This document shows positions 231-55,125 of a stretch of DNA of 57,216 nucleotides, in pieces. A program made the position numbers and the translations under genes. The notes below the pieces were generated by a model, which was not told the origin of the DNA, did no database searches, and saw only the letters and a program-made list of their open reading frames with translations. The stretch comes from an uncultured Streptococcus sp. Its GTDB lineage: Bacteria > Bacillota > Bacilli > Lactobacillales > Aerococcaceae. The stretch spans positions 1-57,216 of the forward strand of contig CAURMP010000001.1 of the NCBI GenBank assembly GCA_963526005.1, given 5' to 3'. Position 1 is the first letter of the stretch. Each line of letters begins with the position of its first letter.

Positions 231-2876
231 CTAGACTAGGTTCTGTATAGTAGAGACACCAACGCCAAGAGCCTCAGCTACTTCAGCATAGGTGTGACCC
301 TTCTTAAGCATAGACCTAGCTCTAGACGCATTAGCTAGGGACATAGCAGTCTCTTGTTTAGGAGTAGCCAGTTGTTTAACTCTATCACTGTCTGCAAAGC
401 GTAGTACATCAGTAAGCATCTTAGTACTAACAGCACCAGATTGAATCGCTTCCCACTCGTCATTCTCTATCTGAATCCTAGTCTTAGCACCATCAGCACC
501 AGTCTTAAGACGGGCTGCTGCAATAGCCTGTTGTTTAAGCTTCTTGAGTTGATCCTTCTGCATGTCAGGATCTCTCTTTTCAGCAATCACTTTGTTAGCT
601 ATTAGTTGCGCTTGTCTTTCTCTAGGAGAGTTAGCTAAAGCTAAGTTTAGCTTGTGTTGTAGAGATTCGACTTGTGTCTTGTACTTGACTTTAGCCTCTT
701 TGTTAACGACTAGATTAGGTGATGTCTGTACAACAGTGTTCGCCTTGTCACGCATCTTACCAAGGGCATTGATATAGTCACCATACATGTTTTCAATAGG
801 GGTGCCAGAACCTAGTTTCTTAGCGTCCTTAACTAATTCTACAACATGATCTGTAGAGATAGTTTTAGTCTTCTTGATAGTAGGCTTTAATCTAGGATTG
901 GCAGCTAGTTCCTCAGGAGACCTGTCCTTATACCAGGTTTCTAGGGTACGGTGTTCTGTCTTCGATCTAGAAATAAGAGTTGAAGCACCGCTTTTTATAT
1001 TACCAGAAATAACATCATAATGTTCTTGATATGTTTTTTTAAGATCCTTAATATTATGTTCTCTTTCTGAACGAGCAACATCCAAATTATGTTTCTCAGC
1101 ATCGATAACAACCATAGAATGTCGAACGGCTCTAGCAATTTCAGATTGAGAAGCTCCTTTTAAAGTCATATCAGTAATAAGATTCGAGACTTCACCCATC
1201 GTCTTTTGTTTTACTGTCCAGTTACCTTTTGAATCACGAGGTAATAACTTTTCATTAGGAGACCAATATTCTTTTGTATCAAAGTTCTTCAATTCTTTTA
1301 ATGAGCGACTAGTTTTAATTCCGTTTTTATTATTGGGAATAACCATAACTGTGTCACCATCAAAGTCGGCACCAGATAATTTACTTGCAACAGATGAATC
1401 AATACCGACTGCATCTTTTGCGCCCTTCATAAATTTAGCTGCGCCATTACCAAGTTTATTATTAACAGTTAATTCTGGTAATTCGAAAATACCACCATGA
1501 GGATAACGAACAAGAACAACCTTCTCACCATTCTTAAAGTTTGGTGCGTAAATTTCATTTGCTTTAATACCCGATAATGGTAATAAAACCTGACCTTTCA
1601 TTCTATCGAAACCAACTAGTTTCAAATTATGACGTTTGGTTGTAAGTCCATCAGCAAAGTCTTGCATCATTACTCGTTTAACTACAGGGTTTGTGAGATT
1701 ATTAATTTCATCAAACTCTTTTTGTAGTTTATCATAAGTGGCTTGGATCCTTCCCTTAACAAGAGCAGGTGGTTGTTTAGAAACAAACTGAGAAGATAAG
1801 GTCTTAGACCAAGTTCCCCAGTCACCTTCCTCATTTACTTTATTGATAGCACCTTTCTGTCCGTTAGGTTTGATTTGTGCACCAAATGGATTATCGGGAT
1901 CATCTTTAAGTTTCTTGAGTACATCTTGTTTAGAAGTTCCTTGATGTTTGTTGGTGTTGAATATGATGTCGACGCCTTTAGGGAAATCCTTAGGGTCACC
2001 ATAAACGGCCATACCTTTAAGATAATGTGTTCCACCTACACCAATACGAACTTGAGCGTAGCGAGAGCCATCTAGATCTAGACCTTTTGCTCCTGGACGA
2101 ATTTCCATAACACCATCTTTATCGGTACCACCTTGTTCAGCATAGCGAATATCAACACGCTTCCAATCAATATGTTCAATTGGTTTCAAACCTAATTTAG
2201 TATGACCATCTTCAGTCTTATAAATATTTGGTGGTTTGATTTCATGTTTATGTTCACGAACAATATCAGGATTTGATTCTTTGGTTAGGACTTTCATCTC
2301 AACCCAGTGATCATCGTTGGTAGCATTCTTAACATAAACTTTATGCATGTGATATCCATCGGATTCTAATTGTTGAACGGCACGTTTAAGCATGTTCTCA
2401 TTAATTCCAAGTTGTTGTGCTGCTCCCAAGCCTACGTCCAAATATGGATTCTCTTTAATTAAATCTTTCAAATCAGATTTAACTTGTTCCATACGATTGA
2501 CTTTCTGTTTGACAGAAGCGTCCATGTTCATACGAACTGTAGATTCAGGAATACCAGTTCTACGAGATATCTCAATAGAACCTAATCCCTGATCTGCTAG
2601 CTCTTGAATTCTGGAAATATTGTGTAAACGAATTTCTTGTTTAGCAATATTATTACGAGAACGGAATTCGGTTGTTGTAATACCAAGTTTCATTGAAATT
2701 TGAGTATCACTTAAACCATCCTTCCGATATTTTGCAACCTTGTCGGACCATGAAGTAGCCCGTTGATATGCATTCTCACCAGAACCCCATGCGTATCGTC
2801 CACTGTGTGGAACATTACCTTGGTGAGGAGTACCTCGGTGTAAGAGAATATCCTCATAAGCTTCTTGTAAATCCAT
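231..2876 (-). CDS. Single-subunit double-psi-beta-barrel RNA polymerase (YonO/cRdRP-like) with terminal HTH domains
   Basis: 881 aa; SGADFDGDTV catalytic motif preceded by VLVRYPHGG (R-x-P); HTH-like segments near the N-terminus (GLSDTQISMKLGI, GSIEISRRTGIPESTVR) and at the C-terminus (TYAEVAEALGVGVSTI). Confidence 0.8.
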   Translation of the reverse strand: MDLQEAYEDILLHRGTPHQGNVPHSGRYAWGSGENAYQRATSWSDKVAKYRKDGLSDTQISMKLGITTTEFRSRNNIAKQEIRLHNISRIQELADQGLGSIEISRRTGIPESTVRMNMDASVKQKVNRMEQVKSDLKDLIKENPYLDVGLGAAQQLGINENMLKRAVQQLESDGYHMHKVYVKNATNDDHWVEMKVLTKESNPDIVREHKHEIKPPNIYKTEDGHTKLGLKPIEHIDWKRVDIRYAEQGGTDKDGVMEIRPGAKGLDLDGSRYAQVRIGVGGTHYLKGMAVYGDPKDFPKGVDIIFNTNKHQGTSKQDVLKKLKDDPDNPFGAQIKPNGQKGAINKVNEEGDWGTWSKTLSSQFVSKQPPALVKGRIQATYDKLQKEFDEINNLTNPVVKRVMMQDFADGLTTKRHNLKLVGFDRMKGQVLLPLSGIKANEIYAPNFKNGEKVVLVRYPHGGIFELPELTVNNKLGNGAAKFMKGAKDAVGIDSSVASKLSGADFDGDTVMVIPNNKNGIKTSRSLKELKNFDTKEYWSPNEKLLPRDSKGNWTVKQKTMGEVSNLITDMTLKGASQSEIARAVRHSMVVIDAEKHNLDVARSEREHNIKDLKKTYQEHYDVISGNIKSGASTLISRSKTEHRTLETWYKDRSPEELAANPRLKPTIKKTKTISTDHVVELVKDAKKLGSGTPIENMYGDYINALGKMRDKANTVVQTSPNLVVNKEAKVKYKTQVESLQHKLNLALANSPRERQAQLIANKVIAEKRDPDMQKDQLKKLKQQAIAAARLKTGADGAKTRIQIENDEWEAIQSGAVSTKMLTDVLRFADSDRVKQLATPKQETAMSLANASRARSMLKKGHTYAEVAEALGVGVSTIQNLV

Positions 2877-2893
2877 TACAAATATGGTCCTTT

Positions 2894-3469
2894 CTATTTA
2901 GGTTTGTTCTCAAGAATCCCTGAAAATTCTTGAATGGTATGATATGCGTCGTATACATCTTCTGCGTCAGGAATATAAGTCTCAATGTTTTCACCTTGAT
3001 AAATACGTAACTCAAAGTCAGTCTTCTCAGGTTTAACACCATACTCTAAACAGAAATATGCTGCGTATACGAGGAGTTGTTCCATCTTTGGTTTAGTGAC
3101 ACCAGTTTTTAAATCATGAATCCTTAGAAATCCTCTCGGGTTATCTTTCTTAGGAGGGTCATAACGAATAGCGTCAGCTGTACCAAAAGCATACGGACTG
3201 TAAAATAACAATACTTCACTATCCATGTGATAACCAATTGCATCATTAACAAAATTTGCAACTGCAGGATGTGTGTGTCCTGGCAATAAGCGAATTCTAT
3301 GATTAATCGCGTGACTTGCAAATTCGTGTAACTCAGTACCTCTTTGCTTAGCTTTTTCATTCTCAAATCGCTCTACCAATTTCTCTGGTGTGTAGTGTAA
3401 CCAATGACATTGGCTAGCGCTAAGAAATGAATGCTTACCTTCGTACTCGATGTGTCTGTTCCATTTCAT
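2894..3469 (-). CDS. PD-(D/E)XK (Cas4/RecB-like) nuclease
   Basis: HSFLSAS, RGTELH, GTADAI, IHDLKTG and QLLVYA motifs. Confidence 0.75.
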   Translation of the reverse strand: MKWNRHIEYEGKHSFLSASQCHWLHYTPEKLVERFENEKAKQRGTELHEFASHAINHRIRLLPGHTHPAVANFVNDAIGYHMDSEVLLFYSPYAFGTADAIRYDPPKKDNPRGFLRIHDLKTGVTKPKMEQLLVYAAYFCLEYGVKPEKTDFELRIYQGENIETYIPDAEDVYDAYHTIQEFSGILENKPK

Positions 3470-3740
3470 CTAATACTAACTCCTTGTTCTCAGGATATAT
3501 GGTTCGAGCCCATCCACCAGCTTTGTTATACTTTTCCAAATAAAATTCTTGGTTTGGTTGATACGGTGCATTCGCACTTCTCTTAACTTCCAAGTGGTAA
3601 GAATATGCCCCAATGTCTACAGACAAGTCAGGGATACCTTGAATATGACCAGAGTCATTCTTTTTAACGATTGCATCAGGAAAACGTCCATGAATATCCT
3701 GAATTAATGTTCGTTGAAAATCTCTCTCAAGTTTGGACAT
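3435..3740 (-). CDS. VRR-NUC domain nuclease
   Basis: ERDFQ...GIPDL...LEVK...QPNQ pattern; likely start MSKLE at 3740. Confidence 0.8.
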   Translation of the reverse strand: MSKLERDFQRTLIQDIHGRFPDAIVKKNDSGHIQGIPDLSVDIGAYSYHLEVKRSANAPYQPNQEFYLEKYNKAGGWARTIYPENKELVLDEMEQTHRVRR

Positions 3741-4897: not shown

Positions 4898-5429
4898 ATT
4901 TACGACATAGTGGATTGTCTACCACGTGCACATATGCATTCTTAAGGTTAAGACGAGCATATTGTCCATCTGGGCTTGGGTCACGACGAGCAATCGTCAT
5001 ATCACAAGCTGCGATTTCCATATCATCCAACATACCAAGTTGGTCTTCATTTGTCAAATATGTACGTTCATGAGATTCAACAAGGTCGTCAGTTCCAAGT
5101 GCACCGTCATCATAAATGATTGCGACTGATGGCATACTGAATTGTGTATAAACACGGACTTTGAAGAAATATGTTGGGGTGTACATGTCTGGGTTTTCTT
5201 GCATTTTCAATTCTTGTTCTGGTGTAGATGCTTTTGGTTCGTATAGTTTCACATTGATACCATACTGTTGAAGCAATTCTACATCATCTGGTTTTACAGC
5301 GACGTTAAAATAACGGTCACCTGCTCGATTATACTTTCCTTCTGGTCGTCCAGAGAAGTTACGAGCAAATACGAATTGAACATCCTCAAGGATGAGTTGC
5401 GAGTTTGAAATTTGTGTGATCTGTGTCAT
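4887..5429 (-). CDS. Putative single-stranded DNA-binding protein
   Basis: FARNFSGRPEGKYNRAGDRYF motif recalled from the SSB-like family of this phage group; lies between the polymerase and helicase genes; SD AGAAAGGA before ATG 5429. Confidence 0.6.
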   Translation of the reverse strand: MTQITQISNSQLILEDVQFVFARNFSGRPEGKYNRAGDRYFNVAVKPDDVELLQQYGINVKLYEPKASTPEQELKMQENPDMYTPTYFFKVRVYTQFSMPSVAIIYDDGALGTDDLVESHERTYLTNEDQLGMLDDMEIAACDMTIARRDPSPDGQYARLNLKNAYVHVVDNPLCRKYGF

Positions 5430-5470: not shown

Positions 5471-5517
5471 AAAAATAAAGAGAGGCGCAAAATTTCAAGA
5501 ATTTTGTTCTTCCTCTC
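5471..5517 (-). terminator. Hairpin plus U-tract starting immediately after promoter-motif copy 1
   Basis: AGAGAGG...CAAAATT-CTTGA-AATTTTG...CCTCTCT followed by TTATTTTT on the minus strand. Confidence 0.7.
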
Positions 5518-10032: not shown

Positions 10033-10304
10033 TATTCTTCCTCTTTTCCTTTTATCGCAGCGTCAAATTCCCTATCGTTCAAGTAATAATGATACGAGAG
10101 AATATGCTCTTTACGAATAACTGCTTTCTCCATTGTTTGTGCGGTACGACCATACACAATGGTTACATAATTGTCAGTCATAGTAACTCTTCGAACATGT
10201 CGAAATACTTCTGGAAATTCACCAATCGTAAATCGTTTCTGTTCTTGATATTCTCTAGAGTAGACAGGCACCAATACTTTAAACTCAACTTCTGTGTTAC
10301 TCAT
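10032..10304 (-). CDS. Hypothetical protein
   Basis: Start MSNTEV at 10304 with AAGGAG SD, overlapping the lysin stop. Confidence 0.7.
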
Positions 10305-11220
10305 TAGCGAGTTTCTCCTTAGCATCCTTACCTACAGTCGTTGTGATCTTACCATCAGGTTCAACAGTAAATGCAGGTTTCTCTTCCAGACGTCCATCAG
10401 GAAGTAGCAAATACCAACCATCGTTGTAACGAATAAATGCGTCTGACTTCATATCGCCATTCGTAGCTTCCAAGTAGTACCAGTTATCATAGTATTTAAC
10501 CCAACCAGTAACCATCGCTCCACTACGGTCGAAGTAATACCATTTACCATTGATTTTCTTCCAGCTAGTAGCCATATATCCGTCTTTATCAAACCAATAC
10601 CATTTACCATCAGTGTGTTTGACCCAGTCGTTAGCTACCATATATCCATTCGCATCGAAGTAGAACCAAGATTTATTCTCCTCAATATATTCGAATTTGC
10701 TTGTAGGATAGCTTCCATTCGCATAGACGAACCAATATCCTTTAGAGTCGCTGTTCCATCCAGTCTTCACTTCTTCCACAACAGCATCTGGATTAGTCAA
10801 ACGGTATACATAGAAATATGGACGACCTGCATACAACCAAATATCATCATGGTCATTCACAGTGATTCCATCAAAGCGGTAGTTACAGTGGATGATGTTG
10901 TTTTCATCAATAAAGATACCGGTATGTCCACCAGCACCACTAGAATATCCACGACGTCCCCAGATGAAGATATCCCCACGTTGAGCGTCCCATGGAGTGT
11001 TCTCTGCAATCAATGTATATCCATTATCGATCAACCACTGGTGTTCGTATTCAGTATTCACTGCCCAACCAGCAGATGAAGCTCCACCTGAACGTAGAGC
11101 GTAGTAAATAGAGGATGAACAGTCGTAGCTGTCTTCACCATCACGGTATTCCATACTATAGCTTACTTGCCCTTTACGAGCGCTCATCCATGCAATAGCA
11201 GTTTCTGTATTAATTGTCAT
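10297..11220 (-). CDS. pal: Endolysin, N-acetylmuramoyl-L-alanine amidase (Amidase_5) with choline-binding repeats; Dp-1 Pal-like
   Basis: [13 protein letters not shown]...DSYDCSSS...GGHTG catalytic domain closely resembling Pal; C-terminal repeats [41 protein letters not shown]. Confidence 0.9.
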
Positions 11221-21118: not shown

Positions 21119-21148
21119 AATATTGTCCTCCTTTTTCTTTTATCGTTT

Positions 21149-21173
21149 CATTATAGGCCATGCAATTTCTGCG
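21149..21173 (-). promoter_or_regulatory. Phage promoter-like motif, copy 2
   Basis: CGCAGAAATTGCATGGCCTATAATG. Confidence 0.8.
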
Positions 21174-25495: not shown

Positions 25496-25522
25496 TTTAG
25501 TGATCCTCCTATAATTTTATTT

Positions 25523-25547
25523 CATTATAGGGTGTGTAATTCCTGCG
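25523..25547 (-). promoter_or_regulatory. Phage promoter-like motif, copy 4
   Basis: CGCAGGAATTACACACCCTATAATG. Confidence 0.8.
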
Positions 25548-26738: not shown

Positions 26739-26761
26739 TTTAGTGTCCTCCTTTATTTATT

Positions 26762-26786
26762 CATTATAGGATGTGTAAATTATGCG
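26762..26786 (-). promoter_or_regulatory. Phage promoter-like motif, copy 5
   Basis: CGCATAATTTACACATCCTATAATG. Confidence 0.8.
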
Positions 26787-27131: not shown

Positions 27132-27157
27132 GTTAGTGTCCTCCAATAATTTTATTT

Positions 27158-27182
27158 CATTATAGGATATGTAATTCCTGCG
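27158..27182 (-). promoter_or_regulatory. Phage promoter-like motif, copy 6
   Basis: CGCAGGAATTACATATCCTATAATG. Confidence 0.8.
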
Positions 27183-27650: not shown

Positions 27651-27720
27651 AAGAAGAGAGGGAGTTGAACCCTCGACCCTCCGTACGATGCCGGATGCTC
27701 TCCCGCTGAGCTATCTTCTT
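27651..27720 (-). tRNA. tRNA-like RNA with a non-canonical anticodon arm (no assignable anticodon, no encoded CCA)
   Basis: AAGAAGA-TA-GCTC-AGCGGGA-GAGC-A-TCCG-GCATCGTA-CGGA-GGGTC-GAGGG-TTCAACT-CCCTC-TCTTCTT; perfect acceptor, D and T arms. Confidence 0.8.
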
Positions 27721-27745
27721 CATTATACACCATGTAATTTCTGCG
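27721..27745 (-). promoter_or_regulatory. Phage promoter-like motif, copy 7
   Basis: CGCAGAAATTACATGGTGTATAATG, abutting the 5' end of the tRNA-like element. Confidence 0.8.
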
Positions 27746-28170: not shown

Positions 28171-28198
28171 AATATTGACCCTCCTATAATTTTTATTT

Positions 28199-28223
28199 CA
28201 TTATAGGACATGTAAAATATGCG
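28199..28223 (-). promoter_or_regulatory. Phage promoter-like motif, copy 8
   Basis: CGCATATTTTACATGTCCTATAATG. Confidence 0.8.
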
Positions 28224-28301: not shown

Positions 28302-28697
28302 TTAATTCATATATTGTGAGGCCTTTTTACGTAGTTGTTCTGCTCTATTGTCTTTAGCGTTAGAAACTAATGATAGACGTCCAGCTTTATTTGTATTAAA
28401 TGTCATAGCTCGACCTCTTGATTTCGACGCCAAATCATACATTTCTGATAATACTGCACGATCTTTAGTAGCTGACATATGTTTGCGCATGGCTTTAAAT
28501 TGAAGTCTATACCCTTTGGCTTGTCTTTTTGTGACCATTCCATCTTTCTTCAATCGTTTGACAAGTGATTTCATGGTCTTATATTGCGATGCTTCATTAC
28601 GAACAATTTGACTACGACTCTTAATACCCCATCGCATCCCACGAATTCCATAGTGTTCTATAACATCATTATAAGATTGAATACCGATATAGTTCAT
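28302..28697 (-). CDS. Basic HxGxxGMxWG-tag protein (DUF7211-like)
   Basis: DVIEHYGIRGMRWG; K/R-rich body. Confidence 0.8.
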   Translation of the reverse strand: MNYIGIQSYNDVIEHYGIRGMRWGIKSRSQIVRNEASQYKTMKSLVKRLKKDGMVTKRQAKGYRLQFKAMRKHMSATKDRAVLSEMYDLASKSRGRAMTFNTNKAGRLSLVSNAKDNRAEQLRKKASQYMN

Positions 28698-28711: not shown

Positions 28712-29251
28712 CTAGAATTTTCCTCCAGCATTAACATATGCTTTAGCACGAGTAGCTTTAGCTTTATTAATATCGTTCTTATAACGTGTATTTAGACCAA
28801 CATATGCATTACTCATTTTCTTCAGAGCTTCGCCTTTACGAACTCGGTAATCTTGATGAGATTCTCCAGCGGCTTTGTTACGTTTTGTAAAGAAAGCATC
28901 ATTTCCATATTTCTTAAAGATCTTTTCATCTCCAGTAGAGTGTTTATCTAAAGCTTTACGCTTATCTGATTTATATTTCTTATTCGCTTTAACCATATCG
29001 TCAACAACTCGGTTACTGTATTCCATATGTCTAGAACTTACGCTCAAAGGACTTCCAGTCATACCTCGAGTTTTACGACGTGCAACAGCATAAAAATTAG
29101 GGTGACGTAGTTTACGTTTGACCATACCGCCATAAGCAGATCCCCAACGTTTCATACGTTGTCCCCACTTCATCCCTTTAACGCCGTGGTGTTGCAAGAT
29201 ATCTTCAAAGCTATCAGTTTGATATAGTTCATTTTCTTCAATAATAATCAT
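28712..29251 (-). CDS. Basic HxGxxGMxWG-tag protein (DUF7211-like)
   Basis: DILQHHGVKGMKWG; K/R-rich body. Confidence 0.8.
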   Translation of the reverse strand: MIIIEENELYQTDSFEDILQHHGVKGMKWGQRMKRWGSAYGGMVKRKLRHPNFYAVARRKTRGMTGSPLSVSSRHMEYSNRVVDDMVKANKKYKSDKRKALDKHSTGDEKIFKKYGNDAFFTKRNKAAGESHQDYRVRKGEALKKMSNAYVGLNTRYKNDINKAKATRAKAYVNAGGKF

Positions 29252-44300: not shown

Positions 44301-45824
44301 AAATTTTTCAAGACCTTTAGTGAAATCATAAAATACTTGCGCATTTGATTTATAATCTCCGATTACCGAACGGAATCCTTCACGATATTTAGTCATGGCT
44401 CCGAATACAAATTCAAAACTGTTTTGGATAGAATTAAAGAGACTCTGTTGTCCTCCCATATCTTTCCATGTTTTTAACAAGGCATTACGATAGTTACCAA
44501 GACTTAAAGTCATTCCCGTAACTGCATCTTCATAAGTTCCTTGGTCATCATTGAAGAATGGGTTTACTACTTCGCCAATCTTGGTCCACATATCTCGAGC
44601 TTCTTCGAATCCGCCCAAGAAATATTCCCAAGTAGTTGCCCATCCAGAACCAATGGATTCTTGAACAGTATCAACCAATTGTCCAAAGGTTTTTACTTTT
44701 TGAGCAGCATCCAACATAGATTGGTTTTCTGCAAACTCATTTAATGTTTTTATTAGGACTTCCGAAGTCAACCATCCATCTTTAAGTGTTTCACGAAAGG
44801 CTTTTGATTTGTCAACGGCAACACCCATATTTTCGGCGGTTTTTAGTAAAGCATCTTGGAATAATTTACCACCCATACCTGCAGCGACAACGGAGTTCCA
44901 GTCTTGAAGTCCTACTCTACCGGCAGCAAGTGCTTGTGATAACTGATACATACCAGTAGATGCTTGTAATGTTGATGATCCAGAAGCAGCCGCTAAATTT
45001 GAAATACCTTTAATGGCAGATACAGATTTGTCTAGACTAACACCTGCAGCAGTAAACGTACCGATGTTTTTAGTCATATCAGCAAATGAATATACTGTTT
45101 TATCGGCATAATCATTCAAATTTTGTAAAGCGGCAGATACACTTTTCATACGAACACTTGAATCTGGTATCTCCCATTCGGTATTCGTCATGATTGTTTG
45201 AATAGATCCAAGTTTATCTTTATACTCGCCAAGACCATCCATAGGACCTCTAAAGAATTGTCCTGTGAAATTCATAGCTTTCTGAATTAAACCACTCAAG
45301 ACATTCCCGACTGCCACATTCATAGCAGTCATAGATCCGCTAACAGAATTAGCCGCCTTCTCAAATGCAGCAGCTAAAGGCGAGGCATCGAATGCTACAA
45401 TTTTATTATTTAGACTATCAATTGATTTGATAGAATTTGGAAATCCTTCGTGATTATCTGCCTTCTGGAAAATACCTTTTAATCGTGACAAGATGTCAGA
45501 GGTACGAGAAGTACGATTCTCGACGTCTGCATTCATCTTATCAATTGCTTGAGCAGCTCCAGACATGTCAATACCTTGGGTGCTCTTTTGGAAAATTCCT
45601 TTAAGGCGAGATAGTAGTCCCTCCGATTTTGTTGTTGATTTTGAAATTGTGTCCAACATCGTTGACATATCAGAGTCAATGTTTTGCGCTGCTGACTTTC
45701 CATTGACAGTATCGAAAGCTTTCTTCAAACGATTCAAAGCATTAATAGTATCTTCTACGTTTTTAGTAAAACCTTTATTGTCTAAGGAGACTCGAGCAAC
45801 TTTTTCGTCTACATATCCGCTCAT
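38370..45824 (-). CDS. Tape measure protein
   Basis: 2484 aa; tape-measure domain (QASTGMYQLSQALAAGRVGLQDWNSV); long hydrophobic and 11-residue-periodic repeats; C-terminal IHSPSRLF. Confidence 0.95.
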   Translation of the reverse strand: MSGYVDEKVARVSLDNKGFTKNVEDTINALNRLKKAFDTVNGKSAAQNIDSDMSTMLDTISKSTTKSEGLLSRLKGIFQKSTQGIDMSGAAQAIDKMNADVENRTSRTSDILSRLKGIFQKADNHEGFPNSIKSIDSLNNKIVAFDASPLAAAFEKAANSVSGSMTAMNVAVGNVLSGLIQKAMNFTGQFFRGPMDGLGEYKDKLGSIQTIMTNTEWEIPDSSVRMKSVSAALQNLNDYADKTVYSFADMTKNIGTFTAAGVSLDKSVSAIKGISNLAAASGSSTLQASTGMYQLSQALAAGRVGLQDWNSVVAAGMGGKLFQDALLKTAENMGVAVDKSKAFRETLKDGWLTSEVLIKTLNEFAENQSMLDAAQKVKTFGQLVDTVQESIGSGWATTWEYFLGGFEEARDMWTKIGEVVNPFFNDDQGTYEDAVTGMTLSLGNYRNALLKTWKDMGGQQSLFNSIQNSFEFVFGAMTKYREGFRSVIGDYKSNAQVFYDFTKGLEKFTEGLKNNTNFMTTMASVGKAVANVFVTIGWALKTLSTGFNSVGQNSDKVILPIKNIADSISKFFEMLRANTNVHVGLIYMGKAIANVFAILASLFKIVTLVLREFFSAFSGGDGSGFKDFAIILFKITEAIRKFVEGLEQGIQSVGLFKAIGHLIASVFTGIFAVISAVFGKILGLNNPFTGLTSILSGAANAISKSGDFINKALTGLANKMGGAWDGIVNAFKSGYDGLKDAFISFDISSIIKAIIGLFALDKWIAFKNSDSTIFNTIFDKVKGAFTKFTGDGKKMVEDAGGVLDTFKQNLNMFSQGVKVWLLLGIAGAVFLLAISIDKLSKIPMKDLSKGIIGMGAAMFGLMKSMKVLGAISKLPKGAIGTMIGFAIAIRLLAGAMMKLAQIPQDQLGPAIASLYGVMLGLVASMKLMDYVGGSKASVIKMIGMAIAVRILVMSVKAIADIDPERLVPAMVSLEALLFGLVGAARVLNNVKISIKAIQSLSVFAFATRVLVASVATLAKFDIEHLIPAVASVVILLASLATAARSLNGVKIKLSALATLITFAIAIRSLVNSVAILANYDIANLAVASGSVTVLLLSLSAATRVIADVKVKLSAMFALITFAGAIYLVVKAVEILANIPVMSLVKAMVGVEALLLSLIAASYIMQKAKPKIGAALGIAALGAAIYLIIRSIEPLANMSIGQIAKGILGMDAIMLSLILVSTLMNRVHLNLAAAGSLVILTGILFQVTMNLSILSKFSWSSLLAAATAMGGVMLAMAFTVKIITGSVDSLSDLVSLKYVFDSFGGVLYAIGTALEQVGKLSWQQMLVAVVGISAVMGALIGVTYAIKKMDIDLETLSGLAVFAGVLYAVGTALSQVAAQPWQGIAAATVAIGVTLGLLVGTSYLLEKFGSFGAAGQLLLLAAGLMAITVPIMLLSTLNLVAVGVAMLALAGNLAILLAAGALAQAVAPGLLILSETLITFGISSILAATSVLIAGVGFLAFVTAIKELAAIAPDALRAVVDGFTAFIKSIADNAPTIVTALVETVKAAIAGLVELVPYLVTAGLQLVIGLMNGIRDNAPQLVTSAVEMLTELSKGLVENLDILLQVAVEVAVQFVQSLANALMGVKDQLIPALSSLLQVIADIILGVIQNLAGPILTKIAEVLGPIMQMIVDFIVQLAPALEPIIKIIGDVLTVLIENLPGILQPIADTIKVLVDGIVAALEILAPVVETIVNGIVEIIKTLAPIVQSVVDTIKAALEVLGQIFQTIGDVIKAAIQGIVDIVNSIGEIIKSVFSGIQGTLEALGGVFESVGAGIKTAMEGVGSVVESVGTAIKTALEGVGKVFESIGNAIKSALDGVANIIKAFGEAAKNAGEGFKLFGEGAKLLSEHGFGAAGGISAIAGAIAGLGGSAWAGNLQGFIQDIENLGNAINNLGGASGNLLILAGGMAQLQGSIGTISGTIPSVNSAFESLSGSLGTISGSIGPVASTFQQLATPIQQLQGSLTIVAGAFMLFTAQIGGVQALLDGIVNSFTNIQNGVTLVGTAIGSLPASFDLFNASLGNVQTTLTNFGTSLTDSATGFGKMGEAATLGMTAMNDAVLNGMVIVQGTMTTSIGQLAQAVTDGFILVQDATTNSMNTVRDVVSQNMDTVMGTIKARMTEVANQMSSSLDQVMRTVSDSMSRVSSTIQSNMSQINSNIQSSTSQLKGTFDQFASNAQNTITQMMSTINSSIQNGMNTAKSTVDSNMNSIMSTISSYNGTAKSNGYNVGWYISDGIASGIWANVGSIESAAQRIINKANEAARAAAQIHSPSRLFAKSVGKYIPQGIVMGIDKEMPKSIQQMQDTFKNGFTAAADDAVKHGNAMAEAVAGAVNQVGDMLDVAVDDMNYTPTITPVIDSSNLDKFKPKDYGLNLGSATRVPTPVYSPGSSSGQTTTVNTDNSTKEYNINVTVDNSGHPINPKELAKQVQEHMKQFDDENRRGRGEEVLW

Positions 45825-45831: not shown

Positions 45832-46521
45832 CTATACTTTCTTTTTAGATAATTCTTTAAACATCTTCAAAGCATCACTATTAGCTGCATCGATAGCTGC
45901 TGTTTGTGTTTTAGCTTTCTTATTGATGTTCTTAAAGTTGGTAGAAATTTCTTTTAATTTTTGTCCTAGAGATTTTTTATCCTTAAAGCTAGCGGCTTTC
46001 TTAACTTCTTTCTGAGCTTTTCTAGCTGCCTCTGCTTCCATAGCTTCTTTCATTCGACTAGCAAATCGTTCTGTATCTTTTCTATGTGCTTCTTTTACTC
46101 GATCTGTAATTTTCTTACTTGCCTCTTTGATTTTGTTCGTATTATTCACACGAATATCTCTAGTCTTATCTTTCAGCTTTCTACTAGCTTCTCTAATTTT
46201 ATCCATTTTACCTTTTTTCGGTAACATATTCGATTCTCTAATTTGATTCATTGTATCGAGACCGGATTTAACAGCATCAATTTTCTTTTTTGCCATTAAA
46301 TAATTTGCGCCTTTATAACCAGCATAAGCTGCTAAAGCAACTCCACCTACAATCGCAGCTTTTTTCAACTTCCGTTCGACATTTGATCGTCGAACAGCTT
46401 TCTGATATGCAGTGTTTTGGTCGTAACCTTTAGACATATATTTATTTGTCAAATGTGTCACACGATTTCTCTGACCCCACTTCATACCTTTGATTCCAAA
46501 GTGTTGTATGGTATCATTCAT
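45832..46521 (-). CDS. Basic HxGxxGMxWG-tag protein with one hydrophobic segment
   Basis: DTIQHFGIKGMKWG; AAIVGGVALAAYAGY; very K-rich. Confidence 0.8.
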   Translation of the reverse strand: MNDTIQHFGIKGMKWGQRNRVTHLTNKYMSKGYDQNTAYQKAVRRSNVERKLKKAAIVGGVALAAYAGYKGANYLMAKKKIDAVKSGLDTMNQIRESNMLPKKGKMDKIREASRKLKDKTRDIRVNNTNKIKEASKKITDRVKEAHRKDTERFASRMKEAMEAEAARKAQKEVKKAASFKDKKSLGQKLKEISTNFKNINKKAKTQTAAIDAANSDALKMFKELSKKKV

Positions 46522-46883: not shown

Positions 46884-47303
46884 TTACCCCTCTTTCAAGT
46901 CTTGTTTACGTTTATCTTTTAAATATTGTTTGTATTCTCTGTAAGAGTCTTTTAGATCTCTTCGCTCTTGTTTGTATTCTCTTTTTGCCCCGTATCGACC
47001 AGTTAACTTATCCAACGCAAATGATCCTGCTACTCCAGATACACCATATTTTAACATATCGGCATTACGTCCTGCCACACCAAGAGCTAAAGCAGCAATG
47101 GCAGATTTTTTAAGAGCTCGACTATATAATTCCGGTCGATTTTGTTTATATTTGATTTTAGCATTACGTAATTTACGTTTATACGTATGATGCCCTTTTA
47201 CTCGATCAACTAAATATCGTGATCGTACTCCCCATTTCATACCTTTGATTCCGAAATGTTGGATAGTATCAATAGAGGATGTAGCAATATATTTATCACT
47301 CAA
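46884..47303 (-). CDS. Basic HxGxxGMxWG-tag protein
   Basis: DTIQHFGIKGMKWG; K/R-rich with a central hydrophobic stretch. Confidence 0.8.
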   Translation of the reverse strand: MSDKYIATSSIDTIQHFGIKGMKWGVRSRYLVDRVKGHHTYKRKLRNAKIKYKQNRPELYSRALKKSAIAALALGVAGRNADMLKYGVSGVAGSFALDKLTGRYGAKREYKQERRDLKDSYREYKQYLKDKRKQDLKEG

Positions 47304-49652: not shown

Positions 49653-49654
49653 TC

Positions 49655-51538
49655 TTATCCTCCAGGAACTCCTGTACGAGCAGCTTCAGATCCAGCTGCA
49701 GCACCAGCTGCTGGTTTGAAGTAAACTGCCGCTTTAGCACGAGTAAGGGCACCAGACAAGCGAGTTTCGATCAAGTATTTCTGTTTGTTGTAGTCAATAT
49801 CGAAGTGTTCGAATGTGTTCACTTCACCACCACGGTTAGTACCGATTTGGTAGTCAGCAAGGTTGACCATAATCAATTCTTCAGGTTTCAAAAAGTTTGT
49901 TTCAACGATTTCAGCCACACCGAACAATGAAGCAAGATATTCTTTAGTTGCGGGTTGTTGGCCACCAAATACCCATTGTTCATTCTTGTTACGCAAGAAG
50001 CGAAGTTTTGTCAAGAATAGCGGGTTGATGTACAATGATGGCATACCTGATCCAAGCATCTTAGTCTTTTGTTCAGCGACTGTTTGGAAGATATCCAATA
50101 GCATGTTTGGATTGTAAGTTGCTTTGATTGTGTAGAAGTCATCATCTTTTGTGATTGGACGAATACGATCTTCTTTAATTTTGTTTGCGTCACCTGTTTG
50201 ACGACCATCTGACACCAAGATTGCTTGCGCAATTTCATCATTCAGTTTGATACGCATTTCTTGGTTGAAGAACGCAGCAACATTCAATTGTTGACCAATA
50301 TCGATAGCATCGTCACGGTCAATAGATTGTTTTTTATAGATCGTTTGAGGATCTGTTTTACGAGAAAGGAATGAGAGAATTTGTTCTTTCTTCTCAGTTC
50401 CTTTGATGTAACCTTTAGCGCGAAGTTGTTCATCAGTCAAGTCAGAAAGGTCTGTCATGATTGATTTAACAAACGCAGTAGGAACTTTAGTTACGCGGCT
50501 AAGAATATGTTCTGTAGCAGTGTTAGGTGAGTAAATTACTTGAACACCATTTTGCAGTTGGTGATCAGGGAACAACAATTCAATATTGTTCATTGAGTGT
50601 TGAAGAACGTCACCATTTTCCATTTCAGCAAGTACTTGACCTACTTTACGGCCTGATTTCTGAGCGGCTTCAAGAGCAGCCGTCAATGAATGACGGATTT
50701 CTTCATCACGATTAGGTGCAGATTGTTCGAATGCATTGTAGTGCATAGTTTGTCCTCCTAGGGCAGATTGTTCAATGTTGTTATCTGAATCGGTATCAGA
50801 ATCGACTTCTTCGTCATCAGATTCAGCAAGTTCATTAAGAACTTCAGTTACACGTGCATCAACAGCTTCATCAAACTGTTCATTCACAGTTTGTTCCATG
50901 TTTTCAAGGGCTTCATTTACAGAAGCTTCTGTAAGAATAGCAACGGCTTCTTGTTGGTCTTCGTTAAGAGTCGCCAATACACCGTCCATAATGTCTGCTG
51001 CTTGATCATCATCTGCGTGTTGAATGCGGTCAAACAAACTTACTCGCTCTTGTCCAATCAAGACATCATTTGCAGAATGTAAAAGTTGATCACTTTCCAT
51101 AATGATTCTTTCTCCTTCATCGGGATTATCCGAGTGCGTTAGCACTTCAGTAATAACAGCTCCCGGATTAGCTCCGGCAACTACAAGTGATACTTCATAG
51201 ATGTTACCATGGATTACGTCATTATTCGGAGTACGCTTAATACGGTTAGCTCCAATCGACATATGCCAGATATCTCTATGCTGTACAAGTTCTTTGGCAT
51301 TTTGGGCATTTGGTGTATTATTGAAATAACCTTGTCCATAAACGCCATCCTCCGCATGGTGCAACAACACATGACCAATGATATTTTCAGGCGTGCTTGG
51401 GTCATGAGACCAAACAAGCGGAACCTTCTTTCCATCATTCTCACGGAATGCTCCATGACGGATCACGACACCATCGGTACACCGCATGTCGTTACGGGTT
51501 ACATAACCCGCGAAATCATACTTGGGATGTTTATCCAT
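49655..51538 (-). CDS. Prohead protease / scaffold / major capsid protein fusion
   Basis: HK97-type protease (VPLVWSH, MSIGA, EVSLVVAGANPGA); acidic linker; capsid domain (FDIDYNKQKYLIETRLSGAL); start MDKH after GGAGG. Confidence 0.9.
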   Translation of the reverse strand: MDKHPKYDFAGYVTRNDMRCTDGVVIRHGAFRENDGKKVPLVWSHDPSTPENIIGHVLLHHAEDGVYGQGYFNNTPNAQNAKELVQHRDIWHMSIGANRIKRTPNNDVIHGNIYEVSLVVAGANPGAVITEVLTHSDNPDEGERIIMESDQLLHSANDVLIGQERVSLFDRIQHADDDQAADIMDGVLATLNEDQQEAVAILTEASVNEALENMEQTVNEQFDEAVDARVTEVLNELAESDDEEVDSDTDSDNNIEQSALGGQTMHYNAFEQSAPNRDEEIRHSLTAALEAAQKSGRKVGQVLAEMENGDVLQHSMNNIELLFPDHQLQNGVQVIYSPNTATEHILSRVTKVPTAFVKSIMTDLSDLTDEQLRAKGYIKGTEKKEQILSFLSRKTDPQTIYKKQSIDRDDAIDIGQQLNVAAFFNQEMRIKLNDEIAQAILVSDGRQTGDANKIKEDRIRPITKDDDFYTIKATYNPNMLLDIFQTVAEQKTKMLGSGMPSLYINPLFLTKLRFLRNKNEQWVFGGQQPATKEYLASLFGVAEIVETNFLKPEELIMVNLADYQIGTNRGGEVNTFEHFDIDYNKQKYLIETRLSGALTRAKAAVYFKPAAGAAAGSEAARTGVPGG

Positions 51539-51558
51539 TATACGATTTACCTCCATCA

Positions 51559-52872
51559 TTATTTGCCGCCATTTTGAAGATCCTCTTCACTGTACTGAGG
51601 TACTTCCTCATAGTACTGTTGACCATCAGGGGACTCGACCGACCCAGGTATAGACACATCTTGTCTAGAATCCGAAATATTAGGATTATACAATTGATCT
51701 GCCATTGGATCATCCATAGGACCATAACCAATGACTGCACGGAATTCATTAGAAGTAAGGATTCTATTTCTAAGAAGAGAATCTCCAATTGTTGCCAACT
51801 GACTAGTTGGAACCAACTTGAATGGATCACTGTATGTCACGATGCGATGACCTTGGGTATAGCCAGTCTTCGTGATAAATTTTCTTTGAAATTCTTCTTG
51901 AATTCTAGTCACAATCGGATCGATTGTTCGCGTATAATAGTTTTGCATCTGTTCAGCAGTGGCAGTACCATCAAATACAGCTTTTGTCAAACCGATCTGA
52001 CTAAGCAATTCTTCAGTCAAATATTTAATCTCATCCATAAGATTAGAATTGATTTGTCGATTCAACTGAGTAATCTTTTCATCTGCTGCAATATATGCAA
52101 TCCCTAAATTGGAATCCTGCAATTGTTTCTCAATATCTTTGACGCGTCCGTCGGCTTCTTGTTTCTTAATATCATTTCGGACCGGAACTGGCAATTGGAG
52201 AATCATGTTCCATTTGTTTGCTACAGAATCCAAATCTTGTTTATCAAGAATTGATAATTTCTGAATTAAACGATTCATGGTAGGGTTGTCCGTTCCTAGA
52301 ATATTAGCCAATGGGTTCTCAATGATCGCACACATTCGTTTAGGGATAATAATCTCTGAGAAATCACCCTTGTTTTCGTTGTATACTTTCACTCGAACTT
52401 TTGTAGGAAACCATTCGATGACCTTACCAACTCGCATTGCTTTGATATCATACGAGTCAGAATGCATAGGGTCAACAGTTGCCTCAAGTGGAACTGCCAC
52501 AACGACACCTTCATCAAATAAAGAATAAACCAAATCATGGAAGAAGTCTGTGCTAGACTGATCCGTATTCATCTCCACTTCAAACAATCGTTGAAGCGCC
52601 GAGTTATATTGAACCTCTTGGTTCTGTTTATCGGCAGCTAATTTGACGTGTTGAAATTTAACCATAGATGCATCCATAGCAATTCGGTTAAAGATCATGG
52701 ATGAAATTGATGATCTGGCATATGATCTTGACGGAATAGCATTATTTGGATTTAATGCTCTTGGCTCCGTTGTAAGTTGATATTGAGTTTGTGTTTCTAC
52801 CAATGATGGTTTATTAGTATCGTTGGTAAACATTGACCAAGCATGTTGTAGTCCATCAGTAAAAATACTCAT
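51559..52872 (-). CDS. Portal protein
   Basis: 437 aa after the terminase; SMIFNRIAMD, YYTRTIDP and ILTSNEFR motifs. Confidence 0.9.
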   Translation of the reverse strand: MSIFTDGLQHAWSMFTNDTNKPSLVETQTQYQLTTEPRALNPNNAIPSRSYARSSISSMIFNRIAMDASMVKFQHVKLAADKQNQEVQYNSALQRLFEVEMNTDQSSTDFFHDLVYSLFDEGVVVAVPLEATVDPMHSDSYDIKAMRVGKVIEWFPTKVRVKVYNENKGDFSEIIIPKRMCAIIENPLANILGTDNPTMNRLIQKLSILDKQDLDSVANKWNMILQLPVPVRNDIKKQEADGRVKDIEKQLQDSNLGIAYIAADEKITQLNRQINSNLMDEIKYLTEELLSQIGLTKAVFDGTATAEQMQNYYTRTIDPIVTRIQEEFQRKFITKTGYTQGHRIVTYSDPFKLVPTSQLATIGDSLLRNRILTSNEFRAVIGYGPMDDPMADQLYNPNISDSRQDVSIPGSVESPDGQQYYEEVPQYSEEDLQNGGK

Positions 52873-52890
52873 ATACTCATACTGGCCTTT

Positions 52891-54618
52891 CTATACGAAT
52901 AAATCGAGGTTACGTTTATACGCAACCCAGGCATCTATTAATGCTGCAACGTTATCGATCTTTTCATCGGCACGTTTTTTAGACAATTTATAGTTACCGT
53001 TGTTATCTTGGATAGCGACGGCATTACCCATCGCAAACTTCATTAGTTCTTCATCAAATATGAGAAGACGTTCCATAGCCAAGTTTTTCAACTCACCCAT
53101 CGGAACAGATTCGGTTTTGGCACCTTGAATAACTTTCTCGACACCAAATTCACCGTTATCTCGGGTCCATCTTTCCACAAATTCTCGAGCATTATACGGG
53201 TCAAAGCCAAATGCATATACGATATATTTGTGTGAATAGATCATTTCAGTTAGGTCATCATACACTTTATTCAAGTCTAAGACAACACCATCCATTACAA
53301 TTAACGTTCCTTCAGCAATCAGTTCATCATAACGATTACGCATCGCTGAAGTTAGTTTCTTGAGTTTTGATTCGCAGACATAAGATCTAGTTTTTATACC
53401 AAATCGTCCACGACCAAGTGGAAATAGAAATGTGAATGCACAGAAGTCATCCCCTTGTGAAAGGTCAGCACCCATTGCGCATTCAAGACCATCGAAGTTT
53501 TGGGGTCTATGTGGAATTGTTTCTTCATACACAAAGAAATAAGTATAACCTTCAACTGGGATACCAAAACGTTTAGCTAAAGTATCAGCTCTTGTTGCAG
53601 GTTGATTTTCGGCACGCTCTACTTCATTTCTGTATGTTTCATAAGACACTGTAGCACCCAAATTAGGATTAGCTTTCAACCACATATCAGGATATGCAAC
53701 TTCACGAACGTCATCTAATCGGTAATACCATATAGACACGTGGGGGTTGAAATATCGTCCTTCTAAAATGTCCACCAATTCCATCTTGATAGTATCCCCT
53801 ACCCCATCACGAGCTGTACCTTCCGAGGAAGTAGCTATGATGAGATAGTTCTCGTTCTTTGAGGCTCCTTGTTCAATGGCACCAATTACGTCCTCTCGGA
53901 CTTCACCAGATAGCCATTCATCGACAGAGGCGTATTTACAACGAAGACCTTGAAGTTTGTCAATGGACATCGGTCGGATCTCCAATAGACTATTCGTTGC
54001 GAAATTCTCTACACCCTTTTTAGTGGATGCCAAGAGCTGCTTCTGGGTTAAATTCCCAGTCATTTTAGAACCCTGGACCATGTAGCGAATTAAAGGACCT
54101 TTTGCGCGACTAAGAGCCGTTCGGAATGGACCCATAATTTCTTCGGCTTGCTTCATGGTAGGAGCAGCGACAATCTGGTGGGTTGTAGAAGTATCAATCA
54201 ACAACATGTAAGCTTGCATGTATGTTGAATACAATGATTTAGCGGCACCACGTCCTACTATCAAGTATTGTTTCGTGGTAAGTCGCTTGAATTTTGATTT
54301 TGTTTCCCATTTACCGAGCTTAGGATTGTATACCTTATCTTCGGAAATGTAGAACCAAGCGAGGGCGCATTCTGCCCATAATTTAAAGGACGGTAGAAGA
54401 GTAACATCACTACCATCTGTCAGAGTCATCTCATTTTCGCAAAATCTAACAAAGCCCTCAATCGCTTGATTATCATAGTAATAATCCGGTGACTCAATCA
54501 AGAAGTCGATTCGGTTCATTTCCAGTGACACCATCCGATTGACCGGAATTTCACCTCTAAGAACTTGTTCCTTAAACTTCATATACTCTTCCGGATATGC
54601 TTTATTCGATAATACCAA
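52891..54618 (-). CDS. terL: Terminase large subunit
   Basis: VGRGAAKS Walker A, ASVDEW Walker B, GADLSQGDDF nuclease motif, KIDNVAA. Confidence 0.95.
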   Translation of the reverse strand: MVLSNKAYPEEYMKFKEQVLRGEIPVNRMVSLEMNRIDFLIESPDYYYDNQAIEGFVRFCENEMTLTDGSDVTLLPSFKLWAECALAWFYISEDKVYNPKLGKWETKSKFKRLTTKQYLIVGRGAAKSLYSTYMQAYMLLIDTSTTHQIVAAPTMKQAEEIMGPFRTALSRAKGPLIRYMVQGSKMTGNLTQKQLLASTKKGVENFATNSLLEIRPMSIDKLQGLRCKYASVDEWLSGEVREDVIGAIEQGASKNENYLIIATSSEGTARDGVGDTIKMELVDILEGRYFNPHVSIWYYRLDDVREVAYPDMWLKANPNLGATVSYETYRNEVERAENQPATRADTLAKRFGIPVEGYTYFFVYEETIPHRPQNFDGLECAMGADLSQGDDFCAFTFLFPLGRGRFGIKTRSYVCESKLKKLTSAMRNRYDELIAEGTLIVMDGVVLDLNKVYDDLTEMIYSHKYIVYAFGFDPYNAREFVERWTRDNGEFGVEKVIQGAKTESVPMGELKNLAMERLLIFDEELMKFAMGNAVAIQDNNGNYKLSKKRADEKIDNVAALIDAWVAYKRNLDLFV

Positions 54619-54630
54619 AATGTTTATCTC

Positions 54631-55125
54631 CTATTTGAAAATTTTCACAGTTTCATTAAACGCATGTCCAGTATCTCTACCTAATGTGGCAAGGTTCTTA
54701 GTCAATTGCGAGTAATTTTTTGGATTCTTTGTTAGCAAATCTTTAGTGATTGTCTGAACAGCAGTATCTCTGATAAGTTTACCAGTTTCTCTACCGAATG
54801 AACCAAATGATTTTTGGCCACCAGGATTAGACAATCGATTTGATCGTTGAACCTGTTCTGCGAAATCGTTCTCCAAGCGCAATCGATTAGTTGCTTCTCT
54901 CAAGTCATGAGAAGTCATCATATGTCTACTATGATACTTCTTATTCCAAGCAGCTCCTGCTTTACGACTTGCTTTTTTCAACTGACGCATCTTTGAACGC
55001 TCTGATCGATTCTTACGGAATCCCCATCGCATTCCTTTGATGCCGAAGTGCTCGATGATATCATCGCTTTCGTTTCCTTTAATCGCGTGGAGTAGTTCTG
55101 GATTCATTAAGTCGTTCTGGATCAT
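54631..55125 (-). CDS. Basic HxGxxGMxWG-tag protein
   Basis: ELLHA...DIIEHFGIKGMRWG; K/R-rich. Confidence 0.8.
   Translation of the reverse strand: MIQNDLMNPELLHAIKGNESDDIIEHFGIKGMRWGFRKNRSERSKMRQLKKASRKAGAAWNKKYHSRHMMTSHDLREATNRLRLENDFAEQVQRSNRLSNPGGQKSFGSFGRETGKLIRDTAVQTITKDLLTKNPKNYSQLTKNLATLGRDTGHAFNETVKIFK

Follow-up and report, generated by a model that had tools for sequence, protein, structure and literature searches.

Why do five otherwise unrelated basic proteins of one phage carry the same short peptide close to their N-termini, and why does the RNA polymerase of the same phage carry half of it? This question is raised by a DNA stretch of 57,216 nucleotides (contig CAURMP010000001.1 of assembly GCA_963526005.1, from an uncultured Streptococcus sp.), which was analysed over its whole length and is called the window here. 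The initial annotation had read the peptide as a portable tag that loads proteins into the phage head, is cut after its His and lets the proteins be ejected along with the DNA. It was found that the peptide corresponds to the Pfam family DUF7211 and that its first half has the form of conserved His sites in the protease-capsid fusion protein of the phage. With moderate confidence, it is proposed that the tagged proteins and the polymerase are loaded into the particle via the tag and trimmed at His there.

The DUF7211 tag in the window

All sizeable open reading frames (ORFs) of the window are on the minus strand, to which all window coordinates below refer. A six-frame search with the pattern [DE].[ILV].H..G..GM[KR]WG gave exactly five matches, all on this strand, in ORFs starting at 28697, 29251, 46521, 47303 and 55125. 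These are the five starts that had been listed initially. The shorter string GM[KR]WG was absent from all six frames of the window outside the five tags. The DUF7211 profile (PF23847, 25 positions, gathering score 27 bits) matched the five proteins, named A to E in the order given, with 28.5, 38.9, 33.3, 36.4 and 34.8 bits, all above the cut-off, and a search of the assembly contigs with the same profile returned the same five places on the window's contig. The earlier description of these proteins as K/R-rich and otherwise unrelated was borne out, with isoelectric points (pI) of 10.2-10.7, a K+R content of 19.5-26.2% and no similarity after the tag for any pair (BLASTP, best E 1.2). The proteins had also been said to begin with the tag; this holds in the sense of a position near the N-terminus and not literally, the tag starting at residue 3-22. 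The net charge after the tag's His is +20 to +37 (+31 in the polymerase), and the leaders have net charges of -1 to -6.

Protein A (131 aa, pI 10.7) is encoded at 28302..28697, with the tag at 28626-28667. Protein B (179 aa, pI 10.2; 28712..29251, tag at 29162-29203) lies downstream of the tail-fibre genes and has an acidic leader of 21 residues with a net charge of -6. Protein C (229 aa, pI 10.3; 45832..46521, tag at 46474-46515) is encoded directly upstream of the tape measure gene. Its tag begins at residue 3, the part after His has a net charge of +37, and a hydrophobic stretch covers residues 55-73. The gene of protein D (139 aa, TTG start, pI 10.2; 46884..47303, tag at 47229-47270) is located between the tail-chaperone region and the tail-completion gene. 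Its tag is identical to that of protein C, and a hydrophobic stretch is present at about residues 59-90. Two tagged genes adjoin the tail-completion and tape measure genes, and two follow the tail-fibre genes.

The core tagged protein E (164 aa, pI 10.4; 54631..55125) is encoded directly upstream of the large terminase and has the tag DIIEHFGIKGMRWG at 55021-55062. An extra site of the type found in the linker of the protease-capsid fusion, ELLH|A, is present at 55084-55098, 13 residues before the IIEH|F of the tag (the bar marks the presumed cut). In an alignment of 61 sequences of this family, E25, H26, G28, G31, M32, W34 and G35 are invariant. A second block, W..KY..R..M[TS]..D[LI]..A[TV].RLRLENDFAEQ, is invariant in the same 61 sequences and is conserved above the tag; the conserved C-terminal block of protein E includes ATNRLRLENDFAEQV. 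The AlphaFold2 model (61 homologues) is helical and of low confidence (mean predicted local distance difference test 62.7, predicted template modelling score 0.27). In this model the second block is predicted to form a helical hairpin and the tag region has no secondary structure; DUF7211 is probably a short disordered peptide. A search of solved-structure sequences with protein E gave nothing relevant (best E 0.9, a methyltransferase).

The upstream neighbour of this gene (55079..55456) encodes a connector-type virion protein (Phage_connect_2, PF24829, 50.7 bits). The order HNH, connector, tagged gene and large terminase (TerL) was also found in phages P092, 1706, Tanis, DrGrey, Dynamite and ReqiPoco6, and the gene upstream of TerL is tagged in P092, Tanis, DrGrey, Dynamite and 1706. 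A small terminase, considered for protein E on account of its position, was rejected since the counterpart in 1706 is labelled as structural and the tag is common to four other proteins.

His sites in the protease-capsid fusion and the portal

In the window an S78 protease, an acidic spacer and the capsid domain are encoded in one ORF, and phrog_3270 matches residues 12-618 of this fusion (E 7e-160). The prohead serine protease domain (Peptidase_S78, PF04586, 35.8 bits, cut-off 21) occupies residues 1-142 (51134..51559), has S101 as its catalytic Ser and ends at EVLTH|S. It is followed by an acidic scaffold-like linker (residues 143-321, 50597..51133; pI 4.05, net charge -36), which carries DQLLH|S, DRIQH|A, EEIRH|S and DVLQH|S. 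The last of these directly precedes the conserved start of the capsid domain, S-M-N-N-I-E-L-L-F-P-D. The HK97-like major capsid protein domain (residues 322-634, 49655..50596) matches phrog_7080 and phrog_10 (major head protein), is conserved from LFPD onward and contains three His in 309 aa. The sites EVLTHS, DQLLHS, DRIQHA, EEIRHS and DVLQHS are at positions 138, 157, 177, 286 and 317 of the fusion. Together with DGLQH|A at residues 6-11 of the portal protein (DNA 52840-52857; gene 51559..52872, PF04860, 63.9 bits), they are present as they had been quoted in the initial annotation.

For 69 ORFs (18,247 aa), composition predicts 7.1 occurrences of [DE]x[IL]xH, and 21 were observed. Five of the 21 fall in the linker, taken as 196 aa, where 0.076 are expected; none of 100,000 linker shuffles reached five. 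Five of the six His residues of the linker sit in this context. The nine occurrences outside the tags, the linker, the RNA polymerase and the portal N-terminus are within chance expectation.

The fusion was compared with 121 distinct close homologues of 83-99% identity. None of the 121 lacked His at any of the five sites, and the residue two positions before it was always I or L, while the flanking residues varied. The mean identity to the window was lowest in the linker (0.80), compared with 0.90 in the protease and 0.96 in the capsid domain. Since His and I/L are fixed within the least conserved part of the protein, the linker sites are under selection. In a distant alignment of the window fusion with those of P092, Tanis, DrGrey and Dynamite (36-40% identity), H142 at the protease end and H290 in the middle of the linker are kept in all five sequences, and H321 before the capsid start (...L-Q-H | G/S-I-x-N-I-D/E-x-L-F-P-D) in four. 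Numerous [LIVMF]-x-H-[small] sites are present in every linker of Tanis, DrGrey, Dynamite, P092, 1706 and ReqiPoco6, and the capsid domains are His-poor. The portal site aligns as L-x-H-[ASG]-[WYV]-N-x-F in five of seven phages. Because His is conserved across the linker sites, the maturation site of the fused S78 protease is very likely [IL]-x-His with a small residue after it. A cut after H321 is predicted to yield a mature capsid protein of 313 aa.

The RNA polymerase and its half-tag

The RNA polymerase gene (231..2876) is located at the far end of the window from the morphogenesis block. It encodes a single-chain two-barrel enzyme of the YonO/crAss-like type with 881 aa (phrog_4291, E 2.1e-296, residues 4-879). 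The catalytic loop DFDGD is at residues 504-508, and helix-turn-helix (HTH) domains are present at both ends. The Pfam family RdRP scored 21.0 bits, under its cut-off of 23.8, and HTH families also matched.

At residues 9-33 (2778-2852) the enzyme has the sequence DILLH-RGTP...SGRYAWGSG, with DILLHRGTPHQGNVPHSGRYAWG at residues 9-31. Among seven homologues, from phages of Streptococcus-like, Lactococcus, Faecalibacterium, Arthrobacter, Gordonia and Streptomyces hosts, D9, L11, H13, G15 and S25-G33 are invariant, which gives the motifs D-x-L-x-H-x-G and S-G-R-Y-x-x-G-S-G. When the polymerase N-terminus was compared with the tags by hhalign, a probability of 81% and an E-value of 1.2e-5 were obtained over 15 columns, in the first half of the tag only. 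The polymerase homologues of Tanis and ReqiPoco6 scored 13.2 and 14.1 bits with DUF7211, at profile positions 5-13 only. The element is called a half-tag here, and not DUF7211 proper, because its second half does not align and the Pfam model stays below its cut-off. Judged by this alignment, the polymerase carries the first half of the tag; the variant tag that had been claimed for it is retained to that extent and does not extend to a DUF7211 match.

The tag in other proteins

A profile built from the five window tags was searched against 1.84 billion representative proteins. Tagged representatives numbered 8060 at E<=1e-3, 904 at E<=1e-10 and three at E<=1e-30. With tags on unrelated proteins of the window and on 8060 library representatives, often several in one polyprotein, the claim that the tag is portable was supported. 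Tags were counted by regular expression in the best 150 of the 8060, a selection with a bias toward multi-copy proteins: 86 had three tags, 40 had two, 15 had four, one had five, seven had one and one had none. In the 142 proteins with 2-5 tags, the spacing was mostly about 150-300 residues. This repeated layout reads as that of a polyprotein which would be cut at each module. In many of the polyproteins the last module is the one conserved upstream of the terminase (...R-L/M-x-L-E-x-x-F/Y...), to which protein E belongs. Dynamite gp7 has two tags.

The logo of 378 tag instances, in which His and several Gly are fixed by the regular expression, reads [DE][DE]-F/I/V-L-E/A-H-Y/F/H-G-V-K-G-M-K-W-G-V-R-K. 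Before His it shows D/E at -4 and -5 and L/I at -2 (95%), which is the P5-P1 pattern of the linker sites. Of 323 internal tags, 121 were preceded within 30 aa by an additional site of the form [LIVMF]xH[SAGTND]; for background windows in the same proteins the figure was 116 of 2146. This additional site is most often placed 9-13 residues before the tag's His.

Tag-joined domains were surveyed in the 53 longest of the best 150 polyproteins. A 2H phosphoesterase was detected at the N-terminus of 19 (eight above the Pfam cut-off) and GNAT in four (three above the cut-off). CW_7, LysM and a glutamine-deamidase fold were found in one polyprotein each, and the remainder showed tags alone. Phage 2H-fold enzymes can degrade cyclic-nucleotide immune signals. 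In gp12 of Gordonia phage Tanis (5478-7043 of that genome) a 2H-phosphoesterase/LigT-like domain comes first and the tag is at residue 350. The tagged gp10 of Streptomyces phage DrGrey (6010-6702 of that genome, 230 aa) has no Pfam match besides the tag; its H-E-x-x-H motif (THESAHAF) suggests a small metallopeptidase as cargo.

Related phages and virion proteins

Full-length relatives of the window polymerase were found in 250 phage records, which include phages of Arthrobacter, Gordonia, Streptomyces and Lactococcus (1706 and the P092 group) as well as Faecalibacterium FP_oengus. The window phage belongs to a lineage that joins Lactococcus phage 1706, the P092 group, FP_oengus and several actinophage groups. 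In the accessible part of Koert et al. (bioRxiv 10.1101/842583), shared ancestry across Actinobacteria and Firmicutes is described, with this polymerase as the signature of the lineage. Lactococcus phage P087, which was considered as a further relative, was rejected as an unrelated phage. Caudovirus D_HF5_2C (OR148986.1) has 96% DNA identity over 87% of an 11-kb probe from the window.

A tag above the DUF7211 cut-off and the polymerase occur together in 10 of 10 related phage records (Dynamite, Tanis, DrGrey, FP_oengus, P092, BitterVaud1, Count, ReqiPoco6, 1706 and D_HF5_2C), which are relatives of one another and not independent. No tag was detected in a sample of 400 other genomes belonging to the same phylum as the window's assembly. 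The related genomes have one to seven tagged genes each, with variable placement. The set of five DUF7211 genes in D_HF5_2C differs from that of the window, and the tagged repertoire turns over between close relatives. Three tagged genes lie in the tail region of D_HF5_2C versus two in the window, and one versus two lie after the tail-fibre genes. In the actinophage relatives the tagged genes are placed between terminase and portal, that is, among the head genes.

In the depositors' record of Lactococcus phage 1706 (EU081845.1), orf7 and orf75 are labelled 'structural protein'. The first (462 aa) lies directly upstream of the terminase and has two tags (H34 and H183). The second is the RNA polymerase homologue, with the half-tag ...D-D-S-L-Q-H-Y-G-T-K-R-H-S-G-R-Y-P-W-G. 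This database label is the only indication that virions of a relative contain the polymerase and a tagged protein. The accessible parts of the record hold 11 'structural' labels and four labels of putative portal, capsid or tail proteins. The 'structural' labels in the records of ReqiPepy6 and ReqiPoco6 were copied from 1706 by similarity. Garneau, Tremblay and Moineau reportedly described 15 structural proteins in 2008, using gel electrophoresis and liquid chromatography with tandem mass spectrometry of 1706 virions.

When the tagged proteins were searched by tblastn, the matches were annotated only as 'hypothetical protein', and the ESM Atlas gave DUF7211 virus clusters only. In the literature search no paper naming DUF7211 was found, and the motif strings matched only an unrelated case report. 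Koert et al. was the only paper retrieved on a virion or YonO-type polymerase of the window lineage. The accessible part of Klyczek et al. 2017 (PMC5513430) contains no mass spectrometry, and nothing on virion proteins was found in PMC5371800 and PMC4155818.

Proposed mechanism

What the sequences themselves show is a tag common to several proteins, conservation of the His sites, a polyprotein architecture and the joint occurrence of the polymerase with the tag; the loading mechanism, the exact cut, the compartment and the ejection described here are inferred. The capsid would be made as one chain consisting of the S78 protease, the acidic spacer and the capsid protein. By cutting after His in [DE]-x-[IL]-x-His, the protease would free itself, chop the spacer and leave the capsid protein of 313 aa. 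Recruitment of cargo to the procapsid as it assembles would rely on both the disordered tag and charge attraction to the spacer. At this stage the basic cargo proteins (net +20 to +37) probably associate with the very acidic spacer (net -36). The protease, active only in the procapsid, would then cut the spacer, the portal tip and the cargo at their His sites. The half-tag would do the same job for the phage's own RNA polymerase. Once the spacer is destroyed, the basic cargo would stay with the packaged DNA and enter the cell with it, and the delivered polymerase would transcribe phage genes without the host enzyme. Polyproteins with an untagged first module, often a 2H enzyme, would fit loading first and cutting later.

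The tag is regarded as a loading and trimming mark because its first half has the form of the spacer sites. The initial reading as a loading system draws partial support from the portability of the tag, the likeness of its site to the linker sites and the 1706 labels; its description of the tag as N-terminal does not hold for every protein. That the cut falls exactly after the tag's His is given slightly less than an even chance. The complete scheme is put forward tentatively, as possible: a 'cargo code' of Gram-positive siphophages in which DUF7211 proteins would be drawn in by the acidic spacer, cut by the S78 protease, whose specificity for His would be a new one, and injected with the DNA, including the polymerase, for host-independent early transcription, and, in relatives, swappable enzymes that could act against host defences. 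A complex prediction with protease residues 1-137 and the first 60 residues of protein E gave a score of 0.02 (mark 0.32), which weighs neither way.

Points against the proposal and alternative explanations

Several findings weigh against loading via the tag and trimming at His. No experiment on the window phage or on the tag was found. The polymerase has no DUF7211 match at E<=0.01, its score staying under the gathering score of 27 bits. The 1706 label 'structural protein' is a database annotation, reportedly based on mass spectrometry of virions. The same label is given to orf62 (45052-45330) and orf71 (49658-50011) of 1706, two small proteins encoded outside the morphogenesis block; because both are untagged, the label may include co-purifying proteins, or the tag may not be the sole way in. 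Two tagged genes of the window are among the tail genes, which makes a location in the tail possible. In some proteins the tag is internal, and an N-terminal 2H module often has no tag ahead of it. As to the His sites, Dynamite has Tyr at the site before the capsid domain, and the portal site of Tanis and Dynamite has Asn in place of His.

Two further points concern the cut itself. The residue after His is S or A in the linker sites of the window, and G or D in relatives, whereas in the tags it is mostly Y, F or H (aromatic in 97% of the 378 tags). In addition, the extra linker-type site upstream of 121 of the 323 internal tags, and 13 residues upstream of the tag in protein E, suggests a possible cut there that would leave the tag in place. 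Both would be explained if only linker-type sites with a small residue after His were cut and DUF7211 formed the mature N-terminus. The kept tag could then dock on the portal, the connector or the inner face of the capsid, or bind DNA, with L-x-H acting as a substrate-mimic docking element. The most conserved part of the tag, G-V-K-G-M-K-W-G-V-R-K, follows His, which would be odd for a discarded leader, and the core tagged gene always adjoins the connector gene. However, four of the five tagged proteins of the window and many single-tag proteins lack the upstream site, so that nothing would be cut in them. Furthermore, the acidic residues at P5/P4 and I/L at P3 before the tag's His match the linker sites, and some tags do have a small residue after His, e.g. 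LQH-A-G. Retention of the tag, the main alternative, is considered rather unlikely.

The tag could also be unrelated to particle loading. It would then be a linear motif that acts after synthesis or entry, for instance in membrane or cell-wall targeting, host-factor binding or association with the tape measure protein in the tail lumen, and its likeness to the linker would be a coincidence. The pair of tagged genes that flanks the tail-completion gene beside the tape measure gene, and the pair that follows the tail-fibre genes, would agree with such a role, as would the hydrophobic stretches in proteins C, D and several relatives, the LysM or CW_7 wall-binding modules of some polyproteins and the tag region, predicted as unstructured in the low-confidence model. 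A coincidence is nevertheless improbable in view of the extended [DE]-x-[IL]-x-H match between the tags and the conserved linker sites, the linker His being otherwise rare and invariant. The polyprotein layout, the 1706 'structural protein' labels and the location of the actinophage tagged genes among the head genes (terminase to portal) also argue for a role in the particle. An even smaller chance is assigned to the shared N-termini being a remnant of duplication in one fast-evolving family, with no signal role. In favour of this, every tagged protein is small and basic and looks helical, and the tags of C and D are identical. Yet no similarity follows the tag (best E 1.2), while the tag itself hardly varies between phages of Actinomycetota and those of Bacillota. 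It is also attached to enzyme domains that are unrelated to one another, and it occurs in 2-5 copies inside single chains.

Comparison with known systems

Loading via a tag that is trimmed in the particle has its best-known parallel in phage T4. There, a short N-terminal peptide, the capsid-targeting sequence of IPI-III and Alt, is removed by the prohead protease gp21. The T4 internal proteins are mostly basic, stay with the DNA and are injected, and gp21 also cuts the scaffold and the capsid precursor. The window tag is likewise a short peptide near the N-terminus of otherwise unrelated basic proteins. The T4 peptide ends in the consensus of the head protease; the window tag has the [DE]x[IL]xH pattern of the five conserved linker sites, which are predicted cleavage sites, and differs from them in the residue after His. 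In other respects the two systems differ. There is no sequence relation, and the window tag belongs to a separate Pfam family; the window protease is an HK97-type S78 enzyme fused to the capsid and not gp21; and the presumed P1 residue is His in the window phage and Glu in T4. Moreover, the conserved half of the window tag lies after the presumed cut, tags are internal and repeated in polyproteins, and the window phage is a siphophage of about 57 kb known from sequence alone.

Virion-packaged RNA polymerases are known from N4 (vRNAP) and crAss-like phages (gp66). For Thermus phage P23-45, a virion RNA polymerase fused to the tape measure protein is described in the accessible part of PMC10770324. 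As in these phages, the window polymerase would be carried and delivered with the DNA; it is of the two-barrel YonO/crAss type, and its presence in the virion is suggested via the 1706 label. It differs from them in being compact (881 aa) with HTH domains at both ends, and the proposed half-tag route into the particle has no described counterpart there. According to the accessible part of PMC5467207, YonO of the Bacillus SPbeta prophage is of the same enzyme class. The corresponding part of Koert et al. (bioRxiv 10.1101/842583) treats this polymerase family, in which both ends carry HTH domains and a DxDGD loop is present, as characteristic of the actinophage supercluster, the 1706 group and FP_oengus. 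Neither text, in these parts, mentions virion packaging, an N-terminal tag or His sites.

The S78 protease and the scaffold-like segment that precedes the capsid domain and would be removed on maturation resemble HK97 gp4 and the delta domain of gp5. Unlike in HK97, protease, spacer and capsid form one chain in the window phage, and the spacer has repeated conserved His sites. We know of no HK97-family protease that cuts after His. The head protease of phiKZ and SPN3US acts at a Glu-type site. In these phages, as stated in the accessible parts of PMC7411985 and PMC10052503, many head-internal proteins are cut by the capsid-maturation protease and enter the cell. Both are giant myophages whose protease belongs to another family, and nothing comparable to DUF7211 as a single portable tag has been described in them. 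Protease-capsid fusions are reported for Arthrobacter cluster AM/AU phages in the accessible part of Klyczek et al. (PMC5513430). The Pfam hits of 25 window proteins and of the 53 polyproteins included no MuF or SPP1 gp7 domain. MuF-anchored polyvalent cargo proteins were reportedly described by Iyer, Aravind and co-workers in 2017. None of the N4, crAss-like, P23-45 and T4 systems is homologous to that of the window.

If the proposed loading route is true, a function would be gained for DUF7211, a family with thousands of members, and a defined recognition site, with a cut after His, for an HK97-type protease. A phage lineage spread over two bacterial phyla would bring along in its particles an RNA polymerase of its own and a variable set of proteins. 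The swappable cargo (2H phosphoesterases, acetyltransferases and a deamidase fold) could counter host defences on arrival. A short peptide would also become available with which selected proteins could be loaded into phages that infect lactic acid bacteria or actinomycetes.

Genome organisation and additional features

The window appears to be a complete siphophage genome of about 57 kb. Scans with Pfam and PHROG covered 25 window proteins and showed a standard siphophage morphogenesis block. It comprises, in this order, HNH, the connector-type virion protein, the large terminase, the portal, the protease-capsid fusion, the adaptor and the terminator, followed by the major tail protein, the chaperone, the tail completion protein, the tape measure protein (2484 aa), Dit and a large tail protein. 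The bacterial assembly to which the contig is assigned has 1.56 Mb in 183 contigs and is 81% complete. The window is one whole contig of it and looks like a complete phage genome that was binned with a bacterial genome. One close homologue of the capsid protein is named by its source as part of a Streptococcus parasanguinis metagenome-assembled genome.

A putative lysin gene is located at 10297-11220; the matching gene of OR148986.1 is annotated 'lysin'. At 10469-10610 it contains three tandem units of 60 bp, which correspond to repeats of 20 aa. These might be cell-wall-binding repeats.

A conserved element of 27 nt, CGCAGRAATTACATNNCCTATAATGAA, is present in six copies with up to three mismatches (21147-21173, 25521-25547, 26760-26786, 27156-27182, 27719-27745 and 28197-28223), where none was expected from 100 shuffles. 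Weaker copies are found near 5516 and 23612. The element is always on the coding strand, directly upstream of the ribosome-binding site of small low-GC genes. It includes TATAAT, and the conserved block spans the spacer and not the -35 box. As a candidate phage-specific promoter, the element may serve the phage polymerase.

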